From the NCBI RefSeq assembly GCF_030013205.1, contig NZ_CP122648.1: a DNA stretch of 64,000 nt; one strand, 5' to 3'. Both the position numbers and the translations under genes were made by a program. The DNA comes from Escherichia coli. GTDB taxonomy: Bacteria; Pseudomonadota; Gammaproteobacteria; Enterobacterales; Enterobacteriaceae. Position 1 is the first letter of the stretch, and each line of letters begins with the position of its first letter. This document shows, in pieces, positions 11,218-34,820 of this stretch. Under the pieces are notes generated by a model. The model saw only the letters and a program-made list of their open reading frames with translations. It ran no database searches and was not told the origin of the DNA.

Positions 11218-13458
11218 ATGGCAAAAAACATATCTTGCGGTGTCCAACTGCGTATTCGTGGCAAAGTGCAGGGCGTCGGTTTTCGTCCGTTTGTCTGGCA
11301 GCTGTCACAGCAATTAAATCTTCACGGCGATGTCTGTAATGACGGCGATGGCGTAGAAGTCCGGCTGCTGGAAGACCCGGAAACGTTTCTTGTGCAGTTG
11401 CATCAGCACTGCCCGCCGCTGGCGCGTATTGATAGCGTCGAGCGTGAGCCGTTTATCTGGTCACAACTGCCCACCGAGTTCACTATCCGTCAGAGCACAG
11501 GCGGAGTCATGAATACGCAAATTGTTCCCGATGCCGCGACTTGTCCTGCCTGTCTTGCTGAAATGAATACCCCGGGCGAGCGGCGTTATCGTTATCCGTT
11601 TATCAACTGTACCCACTGCGGCCCACGTTTCACCATTATTCGCGCGATGCCTTACGACCGCCCGTTTACCGTGATGGCGGCGTTTCCGCTGTGTCCGGCC
11701 TGTGACAAAGAATATCGCGACCCGCTCGATCGTCGCTTCCACGCCCAGCCGGTGGCCTGCCCGGAGTGTGGCCCCCATCTTGAATGGGTAAGTCATGGTG
11801 AACATGCAGAACAAGAGGCGGCATTACAGGCAGCTATCGCACAGTTAAAAATGGGCAACATTGTCGCCATCAAAGGGATTGGCGGATTTCATCTCGCCTG
11901 CGATGCGCGTAACAGTAACGCGGTGGCGACACTGCGGGCGCGCAAACATCGCCCGGCGAAACCGCTGGCGGTTATGTTGCCAGTGGCAGAAGGTTTACCA
12001 GACGCTGCCCGTCAGTTGCTTACCACACCCGCCGCGCCGATTGTGCTGGTGGATAAAAAATATGTACCTGAGCTTTGTGATGATATCGCCCCTGGCCTTA
12101 ACGAAGTCGGGGTAATGTTGCCTGCGAACCCGCTCCAGCATTTGCTGTTACAGGAACTGCAATGCCCGCTGGTGATGACCTCCGGTAACCTGAGCGGTAA
12201 ACCACCGGCTATCAGCAACGAACAGGCGCTGGCGGATTTGCAGGGCATTGCCGACGGATTCTTGATACATAACCGCGACATCGTGCAGCGGATGGATGAT
12301 TCGGTGGTGCGCGAAAGCGGCGAAATGCTGCGCCGTTCGCGGGGGTATGTGCCGGATGCGCTGGCTTTGCCTCCGGGTTTTAAAAATGTTCCGCCTGTGC
12401 TGTGTCTCGGCGCGGATCTGAAAAACACCTTCTGCCTGGTGCGCGGCGAACAAGCGGTGTTGAGTCAGCATCTGGGCGATTTAAGTGACGATGGCATCCA
12501 GATGCAGTGGCGCGAAGCGTTACGCCTGATGCAAAACATCTACGATTTTACCCCGCAATACGTTGTGCATGACGTGCATCCGGGCTATGTCTCCAGCCAG
12601 TGGGCGCGCGAAATGAATCTGCCGACGCAAACGGTGCTGCATCATCATGCTCATGCGGCGGCGTGTCTGGCAGAACATCACTGGCCACTGGATGGCGGTG
12701 ATGTCATTGCGTTGACGCTCGACGGTATCGGTATGGGGGAGAACGGCACTTTATGGGGCGGCGAGTGCCTGCGGGTGAACTATCGCGAATGCCAGCACCT
12801 GGGCGGCTTGCCTGCAGTGGCGCTTGCTGGGGGCGATTTGGCGGCGAAGCAGCCGTGGCGTAACCTGCTGGCGCAGTGCCTGCGCTTTGTGCCGGAGTGG
12901 CAGAATTACCCTGAAACGGCAAGTGTGCAACAGCAAAACTGGAGCGTGCTGGCGCGGGCCATTGAGCGTGGAATTAACGCGCCGCTGGCGTCATCGTGTG
13001 GGCGTTTGTTCGATGCTGTGGCGGCGGCACTGGGCTGTGCGCCAGCCACGTTAAGCTATGAAGGTGAAGCGGCTTGTGCTCTGGAGGCGCTCGCAGCTTC
13101 ATGCGACGGAGTGACGCATCCGGTGACGATACCGCTGGTGGACAATCAACTGGATCTCGCCACTTTCTGGCAGCAGTGGCTGAACTGGCAGGCACCGGTT
13201 AATCAACGCGCGTGGGCGTTTCATGATGCGCTGGCGCAGGGGTTTGCCGCGTTGATGCGTGAGCAGGCCACGATGCGCGGTATCACTACGCTGGTATTTA
13301 GCGGTGGGGTTATTCATAACCGATTGCTGCGTACACGCCTGGCGCATTATCTCGCTGATTTCACATTACTCTTTCCGCAGAGTTTACCGGCGGGTGATGG
13401 CGGCTTGTCTCTGGGGCAGGGGGTTATTGCTGCGGCGCGCATCCTGCATGCTGCATAG
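11218..13458 (+). CDS. hypF: Carbamoyltransferase HypF ([NiFe] hydrogenase maturation)
   Basis: Acylphosphatase domain, two CxxC-x18-CxxC zinc fingers, YrdC and Kae1-like regions; start MAKNISCGV; ORF-track start 11146 is an extension. Confidence 0.9.
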
Positions 13459-13490
13459 TGGCGGATGTGGCGTAACTAAGCGTAAAAAGA

Positions 13491-13523
13491 GCGCGGACAG
13501 TCCCCTCGCCCTTTGGGCGAGGG
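13491..13523. repeat. Small palindromic repeat (GCGGACAGTCCCCTCGCCC..GGGCGAGGG), same family as the repeat at 57096-57115
   Basis: Inverted repeat seen in hypF/norW convergent intergenic; near-identical core in reverse orientation near gabP. Confidence 0.5.
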
Positions 13524-13535
13524 AGAAAACCATGC

Positions 13536-14669
13536 CTACACCGGCAACGTTTTCAACAATCCAAACGCCTCTTTCATCCGATCCTCACTGACCACAAAGG
13601 CGCGAAGCTGGTCGGCATCATCAACACCGCGCGCCACCATTCCCTGGCGTTCGGTATTAATTTGCCAGCGTAAATCCTGACGCTGGGTTTCGCCTGCCAG
13701 ATGCAGCGGTAATTCTGGCGTTTTGATTTTCACCAGCATCGCAGGGAGTTTCAGCGGCGTGTTATTGCCGAGAAGATTTTTTGCCAGCACCATCGCGCTA
13801 AGTTGAATCGGCTGGAGGAACGGCAATACCTGACCGTTAATTTCCGTGCAATCGCCCAGCGCATAAATATCGGCATTACTGGTTTGCAGATAACTATCGA
13901 CGCAAACGCCGCGATTAATCGTCAGCCCGGCGCGTCGTGCCAGGGCGGTTTCCGGGCGCAGTCCGGTGGCGGCAATTACCGCATCCACTTCGATGCTGCG
14001 CTGGCGGTCCAGCGTTGCCAGAATGCTAGAATCCGTTTTTTCCAGCCCCTGCAACTGAGATTTTAACAGCAGATGAACGCCCATCTCCGTCAACCGATGC
14101 TGCAAGCGGCTGCTTACTTCCGGTGGCATTAACGATGCCAGAATACTGGCAGCGTTGTCGATTAGCGTGACCGCTTTGCCTGCACGACAAAAATCCATCG
14201 CCAGTTCGCTACCAATCAAGCCACCGCCAACAATCAACACGCGTCGGGCATCCCGCAGTTGCGTTTCACAGGCGCGATACTCTTGCTGACTATTTAACGT
14301 CAGCATTAACTCACGCCCAGGCACAGGCGGGACAAAGGCGCTGGCACCAGTTGCCAGCACTAGCTTGTCGTATCGCCACTGATTATTCTGGCTTTTCACT
14401 ACATGGGCTTCGGCATCGATATCCGTCACCCAGGTTTGCGGAAACAGGCGCAGATTAAACTGCTCGGCAAATTCACCCGCCGTCTGGCGGGTAAGGTCAT
14501 CGGCTCGTTGCCCCTGACTGATAACATGGCTGAGGTCAGGTTTGTTGTACTCATCCATGCTGTCGGCGGCAATCAGGGTTAATGGAATACTGGCGTCCTG
14601 TTTGCGAATATTTTTCACCAGTTGGCGGGCGGCAAAGCCCGAACCAATGATCACAATGCCGTTGCTCAT
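13536..14669 (-). CDS. norW: NADH:flavorubredoxin reductase NorW
   Basis: 377 aa, FAD/NAD Rossmann GxGxxG motifs; downstream of norV. Confidence 0.9.
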
Positions 14670-19997: not shown

Positions 19998-20022
19998 CTG
20001 ATAAGCGTAGCGCATCAGGCAT
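19998..20022. repeat. REP-like palindrome GCCTGATAAGCGTAGCGCATCAGGC
   Basis: Matches the classical REP core pattern; intergenic srlD-gutM. Confidence 0.6.
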
Positions 20023-20065
20023 TCTATTAGTCGCGCGGAGATCCTTAAAAGATCTCCGCTGTTGA

Positions 20066-29927: not shown

Positions 29928-30020
29928 GGTGAGGTGGCCGAGAGGCTGAAGGCGCTCCCCTGCTAAGGGAGTATGCGGTCAAAAGCTGCATCCGGGGTTC
30001 GAATCCCCGCCTCACCGCCA
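29928..30020 (+). tRNA. serV: tRNA-Ser (anticodon GCU)
   Basis: 93 nt; acceptor stem GGTGAGG/CCTCACC, anticodon loop CUGCUAA, long variable arm, CCA end. Confidence 0.9.
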
Positions 30021-30023
30021 TTT

Positions 30024-30100
30024 GCATCCGTAGCTCAGCTGGATAGAGTACTCGGCTACGAACCGAGCGGTCGGAGGTTCGAATCCTCCCGGATGCACCA
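30024..30100 (+). tRNA. argV: tRNA-Arg (anticodon ACG), copy 1
   Basis: 77 nt; GCATCCG/CGGATGC acceptor stem, anticodon loop CUACGAA, CCA end. Confidence 0.9.
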
Positions 30101-30164
30101 TCTCTTACTTGATACAGCTTTAGTAGCGGTATCAAAAAATCTGCAGTAAAGTAAGTTTCCCGAT

Positions 30165-30241
30165 GCATCCGTAGCTCAGCTGGATAGAGTACTCGGCTAC
30201 GAACCGAGCGGTCGGAGGTTCGAATCCTCCCGGATGCACCA
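30165..30241 (+). tRNA. tRNA-Arg (anticodon ACG), copy 2
   Basis: Identical 77-nt sequence. Confidence 0.9.
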
Positions 30242-30376
30242 TATTCTCCGAAATCTTCAGCAATGAAGATATCGAAGAGGTAGCGGAATTAACCGCAGGC
30301 ACCAGGAAGGATAACGTTGCTTTAGCAACGGCCCGAAGGGCGAGCCGCAAGGCGAGTAATCCTCCCGGATGCACCA
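30242..30376 (+). repeat. ~135-nt spacer repeat ending in a degenerate tRNA-Arg 3' fragment (AATCCTCCCGGATGCACCA)
   Basis: Direct repeat of 30517-30649 with scattered substitutions; terminal 19 nt equal the tRNA-Arg T-arm/acceptor 3' end. Confidence 0.7.
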
Positions 30377-30439
30377 TCTCCTAATTGATATGGCTTTAGT
30401 AGCGGTATCAATATCAGCAGTAAAATAAGTTTTCCCGAT

Positions 30440-30516
30440 GCATCCGTAGCTCAGCTGGATAGAGTACTCGGCTACGAACCGAGCGGTCGGAGGTTCGAAT
30501 CCTCCCGGATGCACCA
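30440..30516 (+). tRNA. tRNA-Arg (anticodon ACG), copy 3
   Basis: Identical 77-nt sequence. Confidence 0.9.
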
Positions 30517-33424: not shown

Positions 33425-33497
33425 GAAAAAGGCCACTCGTGAGTGGCCAAAATTTCATCTCTGAATTCAGGGATGATGATAACAAATGCGCGTCTTT
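33425..33497 (-). ncRNA. micA: MicA (SraD) Hfq-dependent sRNA
   Basis: Reverse complement reads GAAAGACGCGCATTTGTTATCATCATCCCTGAATTCAGAGATGAAATTTTGGCCACTCACGAGTGGCCTTTTT, matching remembered MicA incl. terminator hairpin. Confidence 0.85.
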
Positions 33498-33566
33498 CAT
33501 ATACTCAGACTCGCATGGGAAGAAAGAGTTCAGAAAATTTTTAAAAAAATTACCGGAGGTGGCTAA

Positions 33567-34139: not shown

Positions 34140-34820
34140 TTGTGCACAGAAAACCCCCAGCTAGGCTGGGGGTTCCGGAAAGCTTTCAGCTTTGAGCCAG
34201 TTATTAAAACCCCTTTTGATTTGTTAAAACACCTTGCGGTCTGGCAACTGCAAGTGTCAAACAAGAAATCAAAAGGGGGTCCCAATGGGGAACGAAAAGA
34301 GCTTAGCGCACACCCGATGGAACTGTAAATATCACATAGTTTTTGCGCCAAAATACCGAAGACAAGTGTTCTACAGAGAGAAGCGTAGAGCAATAGGCAG
34401 TATTTTGAGAAAGCTGTGTGAGTGGAAAAGCGTACGGATTCTGGAAGCTGAATGCTGTGCAGATCATATCCATATGCTTGTGGAGATCCCGCCCAAAATG
34501 AGCGTATCCGGCTTTATGGGATATCTGAAAGGGAAAAGCAGTCTGATGCTTTACGAGCAGTTTGGTGATTTGAAATTCAAATACAGGAACAGAGAGTTCT
34601 GGTGCAGAGGGTACTACGTCGATACGGTGGGTAAGAACACGGCGAAGATACAGGATTACATAAAGCACCAGCTTGAAGAGGATAAAATGGGAGAGCAGTT
34701 ATCGATTCCCTATCCGGGCAGCCCGTTTACGGGCCGTAAGTAACGAAGTTGGATGCAAATGTCAGATCGTGTGCGCCTGTTAGGGCGCGGCTGGTAAGAG
34801 AGCCTTATAGGCGCATTTGA
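34140..34820 (+). mobile_element. IS200-type insertion sequence (IS200/IS605 family); boundaries approximate (+/-30 nt)
   Basis: Left-end hairpin CCCCCAGC-TAG-GCTGGGGG (34154-34172), RBS-occluding region AAAAGGGGGTCCCAATG, single Y1 transposase ORF; ~0.7 kb. Confidence 0.8.
34285..34743 (+). CDS. tnpA: IS200 TnpA (HUH Y1 transposase)
   Basis: 152 aa from MGNEKSLAHTRWNCKYHIVF; HxH motif (HIHML) and catalytic Y region; near-identical to remembered Salmonella IS200 TnpA. Confidence 0.9.
   Translation: MGNEKSLAHTRWNCKYHIVFAPKYRRQVFYREKRRAIGSILRKLCEWKSVRILEAECCADHIHMLVEIPPKMSVSGFMGYLKGKSSLMLYEQFGDLKFKYRNREFWCRGYYVDTVGKNTAKIQDYIKHQLEEDKMGEQLSIPYPGSPFTGRK

Follow-up and report, generated by a model that had tools for sequence, protein, structure and literature searches.

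BoxC, a family of short GC-rich intergenic palindromes in Escherichia coli, is said to have been described by Bergler et al. in 1992. Its 1990s descriptions are listed as refs 46 and 47 of PMC4666352, it also appears in Bachellier et al. 1999 (ref. 31 of PMC2267715), and the same elements have been published by Maher and co-workers as PIT, for potential intrastrand triplex elements (refs 22 and 41 of PMC4666352), and by Holder et al. 2015 as TMECO (PMC4666352). According to the latter account, a TMECO is a pattern of three blocks, CCCTCNCCC-N3-6-GGGNGAGGG-N3-GGGNGAGGG, in which a second loop of TTA defines type A and one of CCG type B, and copies in a pair are inverted relative to each other, one of type A and the other of type B, an arrangement reported at five K-12 loci. 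The family is recorded there as present in E. coli, Shigella and Enterobacter and absent from Salmonella, with loci that are mostly conserved in position between strains, and published counts for K-12 lie between 22 and 33 copies (32, 22, and 23 in separate counts).

Herein we examined a 64-kb window, meaning the whole stretch of E. coli DNA that was analysed, in which an earlier note had described a palindromic repeat common to the spacers between hypF and norW (site 1) and between gabT and gabP (site 2). The core, GCGGACAGTCCCCTCGCCC, is found as an exact match at 13493–13511 (+), and its reverse complement recurs at 57097–57115, where it differs at a single base, the A/T in the middle of GGACWGTCC. 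The 20-mer interval that had been given for the second copy (57096–57115) was right, while that of the first copy (13494–13512) has to be moved to 13493–13511. At a tolerance of up to three mismatches, the core is expected to match 0.03 times per window, and two matches were reached in 0 of 100 dinucleotide shuffles. The likeness of the two sites also outruns the core, into TAAAAA..GCGGACWGTCCCCTCGCCC in one flank and GGGNGAGGGAGAAAACC in the opposite flank. The exact match, the one-mismatch match and the shuffles together confirm that the repeat is common to both spacers, and the inverted repeats computed at site 1 and site 2 place both copies within intergenic palindromes, as the note had it. 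That two GC-rich palindromes should resemble each other over 19 nt by chance has the low complexity of their C/G-rich arms as the sole point in its favor; against it stand the shuffles, the continuation into both flanks and the independent match of both sites to a published family profile (below). A chance match was rejected on the shuffle result and the profile matches, and we regard it as next to impossible.

The family profile was built from 22 published K-12 BoxC members (Petrillo 2008 supplement, PMC2267715), whose consensus of ~50 nt reads roughly TTCCCCTCACCCTAACCCTCTCCCCAAAGGGGCGAGGGGACYGTCCG, the core corresponding to its last ~20 bases. Across both strands of the 64 kb this profile gave three significant matches (57067–57114, 57053–57017, and 13519–13494) and no further one on either strand. 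The ~50-bp GC-rich architecture of the family comprises CCCTCNCCC, a loop, GGGNGAGGG, a 3-nt loop, GGGNGAGGG again and a GACYGTCCG-type tail. The three-block pattern is matched exactly at 57021–57053 (+) and 57071–57105 (−), with 0 matches expected by chance, whereas at site 1 it is not matched: the two-block hairpin at 13503–13523 matches and the third block is absent. Both sites are intergenic, as is typical of BoxC/TMECO, and the profile and pattern matches held when the alignment was repeated. Both sequences are thus members of the E. coli BoxC family. Comparison with the described repeat families, boxC being among those that had been named for the purpose, settles their identity, and it also upholds the proposed distinction from REP, given that the BoxC segments match the BoxC profile, do not conform to the REP consensus and do not align to the K-12 alleles of these spacers, which contain REP. 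What does not stand is the description as a small repeat family, since 5,425 of 5,426 complete E. coli genomes contain BoxC, at a median of 18 places each (range 2–32), and the family has appeared in the literature under three names from the 1990s on. The median agrees with the published counts; 53 of the 92,027 places are plasmid-borne.

Other searches contributed less. The pattern GACNGTCCCCTCGCCC was scanned over 298 Gb of genomes, and with 15 specified bases it is too unspecific to define a taxonomic range: no enteric genome was among the matches listed, which were mostly from high-GC soil and environmental taxa. Rfam returned nothing at either site at the gathering threshold, and its E-value searches of both sites gave only sub-threshold matches to eukaryotic miRNA hairpins. 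A gene-name search of the supplements to PMC4666352, a paper covering 63 TMECO loci, found neither hypF/norW nor gabT-gabP.

At site 2, the 310-bp spacer separates the stop codon of gabT from the start of gabP, both genes being on the − strand. It holds a complete, canonical BoxC at 57067–57114 (+, in the orientation of Petrillo; nhmmer E=3.3e-16, profile positions 2–49 of 51), which passes the full-length profile test and to which the second core copy (57096–57115) belongs. Within it, the exact three-block match at 57071–57105 (−) carries a TTA second loop and is therefore type A. The second BoxC of the spacer, at 57017–57053 (−, nhmmer E=1.2e-7, profile positions 6–44), is inverted relative to the first, and its three-block match at 57021–57053 (+) has the CCG loop of type B and a GAGGGAGAAAACC tail. 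With TTA and CCG loops on opposite strands, the gabT-gabP pair obeys the published A+B rule. Together with outer arms TTAAAAACGAAAGCGG and CCGCAGTCGTTTTTAA, the inverted pair makes up a composite palindrome of ~134 bp at 56994–57127 (inverted repeats I1–I7). Structure prediction, which throughout this work covers Watson-Crick pairs only, folds the composite as one long hairpin, with −81.5 kcal/mol (z −7.5) for the − strand, which is the one transcribed, and −79.7 kcal/mol (z −6.4) for the + strand. The allele-specific segment, defined by alignment to the K-12-like, EC190329 and 116333 alleles, spans 56976–57212 and consists of the BoxC pair plus ~85 bp of AT-rich sequence. This AT-rich stretch (57128–57212) is absent from K-12, and it contains a 13-nt direct repeat, CATCGTTATTATT and CATCGTTATCATT, at 57143–57155 and 57164–57176.

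The spacer at site 1 is shorter (77 bp) and separates the convergent genes hypF (+, stop codon 13456–13458) and norW (−, stop codon 13536–13538). Here the profile match at 13519–13494 (−, E=2.3e-4) covers positions 24–49 only, that is, the 3′ half; the full-length profile test fails because the CCCTCACCC-TAA module is missing, and we thus regard the copy as partial, or a remnant. The core at 13493–13511 (+), when read on the opposite strand, corresponds to the BoxC 3′ tail (GGGGACYGTCCG) together with the adjoining hairpin arm. The hairpin itself, CCCTCGCCC-TTT-GGGCGAGGG at 13503–13523, is a perfect GC-rich inverted repeat with 9-bp arms (100% complementary) and a 3-nt loop, and the + strand reads TAAAAAGAGCGCGGACAGTCC-CCTCGCCC-TTT-GGGCGAGGG-AGAAAACC. 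Its predicted stability as RNA is ~−20 kcal/mol on either strand (z ~−2.8) and as DNA −11.5 (z −3.3), so that stable hairpins are predicted at both sites. The whole short-form remnant, with both outer tails (left TAAAAAGAGCGCGGACAGTCC, right GAGGGAGAAAACCATGC), extends over 13482–13535 and adjoins the norW stop codon. These tails align to the outer flanks of the inverted pair at site 2, the left one to the type A side and the right one to the type B side.

Since the tails of site 1 equal the outer tails of the site 2 pair, site 1 looks like an inverted pair with its interior deleted. Under this reading, it would be a BoxC inverted pair that lost its interior, third block included, and kept its outer tails, the loss most likely having occurred by slipped-strand deletion between CTCGCCC direct repeats in a larger BoxC structure at the locus. 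A chimeric query, in which the interior of site 2 was placed between the flanks of site 1, was searched in the 5,426 E. coli genomes and gave a one-piece, full-length alignment at hypF/norW in a single genome, GF3-3 (NZ_CP053259). This strain has the flanks of the window allele with a complete type A element between them, and direct repeats of CTCGCCC enclose its surplus of ~67 bases relative to the window. That a complete type A element lies within identical flanks points to an internal deletion at site 1. Holder et al. describe a corresponding “palindrome effect”, in which inverted pairs lose part of both elements and leave a stem-loop (PMC4666352), and site 1 matches the published products of it. 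Short forms with the architecture of site 1 and with tails that align were also found in other genomes, at alx/sstT in strain CD306 (411–447 of the retrieved sequence L009) and at melR/melA in a K-12 DH1 derivative (403–441 of L010, inside the divergent mel regulatory region), and an inverted pair with the same outer tails is present at gcvP/ygfF (410–520 of L012).

The direction of the change, from long to short, is our inference, and parts of the evidence do not fit it neatly. Plain removal from one CTCGCCC to the next in GF3-3 would yield TTCCAGGACGAGGG, whereas the window has TTTGGGCGAGGG, so the deletion model requires extra changes; in addition, GF3-3 has a degenerate hairpin on its right-hand side and not a clean type B element. 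Given that the long form occurs in only 1 of 5,426 genomes, GF3-3 may instead have undergone secondary expansion or gene conversion. Alternatively, site 1 could be an independent insertion of a short, mobile, MITE-like BoxC variant belonging to a distinct, self-spreading subfamily. Single hairpins with the same tails at no fewer than three unlinked loci (hypF/norW, alx/sstT and melR/melA) and the terminal inverted arms of the site 2 composite would suit such an element, yet BoxC is not associated with a transposase and is all but missing from plasmids, neither site shows a target-site duplication, the long form is present with identical flanks at the same locus, and the literature records inverted pairs that collapse to stem-loops (PMC4666352). 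An inserted short variant thus appears doubtful to us. Taking both sites together, we conclude that gabT-gabP carries a complete inverted A+B pair and hypF/norW very probably a decayed short form, and that a dedicated function at either site is unlikely.

Both spacers are polymorphic among strains. The hypF/norW spacer allele of the window was found in 684 of 5,426 genomes (~13%, requiring at least 80% coverage of the 77 bp) and its gabT-gabP allele in 1,304 (~24%, requiring at least 80% of the 601-bp query). The alternative hypF/norW alleles that we inspected (K-12, O157 and other strains) contain one to three REP units, and at gabT-gabP, REP-like palindromes were seen by eye in K-12 and in one further strain inspected. 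The repeat in the K-12 hypF/norW allele, whose sequence occurs at 40 or more places in every E. coli genome, is one that we take to be REP from this abundance and from the REP consensus; the RefSeq annotation of MG1655 lists no repeat features, neither REP nor BoxC. The hypF/norW spacer therefore exists in three states: a full element (GF3-3), a collapsed hairpin (the window) and REP/BIME (K-12 and the other inspected alleles). The BIME-type allele is not constant in length either: its REP-bearing hypF/norW spacer measures 127 bp in K-12 W3110 (L001) and 221–323 bp in four other sequences (L002–L005), differences that are consistent with the gain or loss of tandem REP units. The polymorphism at both loci agrees with published observations that TMECO loci are far more variable or rearranged between strains than control spacers (PMC4666352).

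At hypF/norW this variation reaches into the coding sequence. Homology between the window and K-12 is lost at ~13439, inside hypF, and resumes at 13536, the norW stop. As the break between the alleles lies inside hypF, the ends of HypF differ (13439–13458 in the window, aligned to K-12 with a gap of 26 nt), and the C-terminus reads ...AARILHAA in the window and ...AARWLAGEVQNG in K-12. The allele-specific segment accordingly spans 13440–13535 and takes in the final 6 codons of hypF, what may be a degenerate REP half, and the BoxC remnant. The REP half is suggested by AGTGGCGGATGTGGCGTAA at 13458–13478, which is similar by eye (~16/19) to the opening half of the REP unit located after hypF in K-12 (ATTGCCGGATGCGGCGTAA), and because of this resemblance the BoxC-type allele may retain a decayed REP half beside its BoxC remnant. 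GF3-3 has, in addition, a 7-bp duplication (GCATCCT) at the 3′ end of hypF.

With regard to function, BoxC at both sites is most likely structure-prone, largely neutral repeat DNA, the main effect of which would be to make the intergenic region unusually variable between strains. The note had raised the possibility of a terminator or mRNA-stability element, and a broader version would have the hairpins act as functional RNA: at hypF and norW they would terminate transcripts or stabilize their 3′ ends, and between the cistrons gabT and gabP they would serve for attenuation or stabilization. The predicted stability of the hairpins at both sites would fit such a role, as would the U-rich stretch (GCUUUCGUUUUUAA) that follows the site 2 fold and a weak terminator-like site at 57023–57008 (−), although the latter, the one site found in the terminator scan of site 2, is at chance level. 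The scan of site 1 likewise gave one weak alternative of 5 pairs, at chance level, and a promoter scan found no promoters at either site. A U-tract does not adjoin the site 1 stem on either strand: the + strand continues from the stem into AGAAAACC, and the − strand has 13 nt that are not U-rich before it reaches UCUUUUU. Published assays are negative as well. In the summary given by PMC4666352, Maher and co-workers saw neither promoter nor terminator activity of the elements, nor any influence on RNA polymerase, in functional assays that were made on other BoxC copies and, in that summary, do not extend to mRNA stability; surveys are reported in the same source to show no bias in orientation, gene distance, operon position or gene class of the elements. 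The missing U-tract and the negative assays speak against the terminator role, and the hairpin at site 1 does not qualify as an intrinsic terminator.

The other half of this functional RNA reading is a stabilizing effect. Members of the REP/BIME class have known mRNA-stabilizing roles on upstream mRNA, and the malE-malF REP was reportedly found to stabilize mRNA by Newbury et al. in 1987. The fact that the inspected alternative alleles hold REP/BIME, which also form hairpins, suggests that hairpins are tolerated or favored and could mean that they are favored at these positions, and it mildly suggests a role as a barrier to 3′-exonucleases. Once transcribed, the site 1 hairpin would be part of the 3′ untranslated regions of the hypF and norW mRNAs alike, where it may slow decay by 3′-exonucleases, and a stabilizing effect of the hairpins on mRNA 3′ ends is possible as a by-product. 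On the other side, the elements are often lost or replaced between strains and have no match to an Rfam family. Overall, a dedicated function as RNA seems unlikely to us.

A role at the level of DNA would imply that BoxC forms triplexes or cruciforms and is under selection to increase recombination and mutation in its vicinity. In vitro, the isolated G-rich strand forms a stable triplex, as CD and NMR showed with one K-12 copy, and TMECO loci have undergone more rearrangement than controls (both PMC4666352); in our case both loci are polymorphic, and the variable segment of site 1 enters the coding end of hypF. The triplex was, however, undetected in duplex DNA and by in vivo DMS footprinting, according to the same account, and site 1 lacks the third block and therefore cannot form the published triplex. 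Any neutral, structure-prone repeat would be expected to be equally unstable, and selection for instability is speculative, the adaptive instability of these loci having been offered as speculation by Holder et al. (PMC4666352). We consider selected instability improbable, and retain the reading of largely neutral repeat DNA.

The alternation of repeats at the two loci, where the breakpoints coincide with gene ends or fall within them, invites a wider conjecture, namely that BoxC and REP/BIME can stand in for one another at a given intergenic position. We give this idea little credence as a general rule. If such interchange were general, it would imply either a hairpin-targeted mechanism of insertion or replacement common to unrelated repeat families, or selection for any stable hairpin at the 3′ ends of transcripts; under selection, the short BoxC hairpin would be a two-way protector of 3′ ends between convergent genes.

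For annotation, the gabT-gabP spacer should be labelled a BoxC/TMECO inverted A+B pair and the hypF/norW spacer a BoxC/TMECO hairpin remnant. Neither is to be handled as a new repeat family or a terminator, and beyond annotation their significance is small. The hypF/norW spacer nevertheless provides a clean illustration of the published instability of BoxC loci, in which the variable segment also changes the last residues of HypF. Elsewhere in the window, the sequence at 19998–20022 that the note had called a classical REP (GCCTGATAAGCGTAGCGCATCAGGC) is present as described, and just downstream of it, at 20035–20060, lies a separate perfect inverted repeat, GCGGAGATC...GATCTCCGC. A tRNA cluster at 29928–30516 comprises tRNA-Ser(GCU) and three tRNA-Arg(ACG) genes, one fewer of the latter than the four (argQ, argZ, argY and argV) at the same position in K-12 MG1655. 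Rfam matches at gathering level were obtained for the MicA sRNA at 33427–33498 (−, 83.9 bits) and the Hfq-binding RNA STnc490 at 34152–34275 (+, 146.4 bits).

Among known systems, Rho-independent terminators share with site 1 a GC-rich stem-loop just past stop codons, and differ from it in that their U-tract adjoins the stem; the BoxC family has also tested negative, as summarised in PMC4666352. MITE-like repeats (ERIC/IRU, Correia/NEMIS, RUP and BOX) are, like BoxC, small, non-coding, palindromic and dispersed between genes, and are transcribed within neighboring mRNAs. Site 2 does have inverted outer arms; unlike those repeats, however, BoxC shows here no target-site duplication (no flanking direct duplications are seen at either site), cognate transposase or evident recent mobility, and the other alleles hold different repeats rather than an empty site. 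To our knowledge, no transposase family is associated with BoxC. REPs do have an associated transposase family (PMC2817692). REP/BIME (PU) elements resemble BoxC as short GC-rich intergenic palindromes whose copy number varies at a given locus, often located between convergent genes or cistrons, and they occupy the same two spacers in K-12 and the other inspected alternative alleles. Their sequence is, however, unrelated, and the K-12 hypF/norW REP is found at at least 40 places per genome as against the median of 18 for BoxC. The closest likeness is to BoxC/PIT/TMECO itself. Site 2 has the same sequence, three blocks, A and B loops and inverted A+B pairing, together with the same intergenic position, copy number per genome and variability from strain to strain, and site 1 is alike in its hairpin arms and both tails, although without the third block it is not a full TMECO member. 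The family, its A and B types, the inverted pairs, their collapse to a stem-loop and the link to variable spacers are all already published, whereas REP/BIME as alternative alleles at both loci is a detail that we did not meet in the parts of those accounts drawn on here. Our addition to the described family is thus only modestly new, and consists of the three allelic states of hypF/norW and the alternation of BoxC and BIME at both loci.
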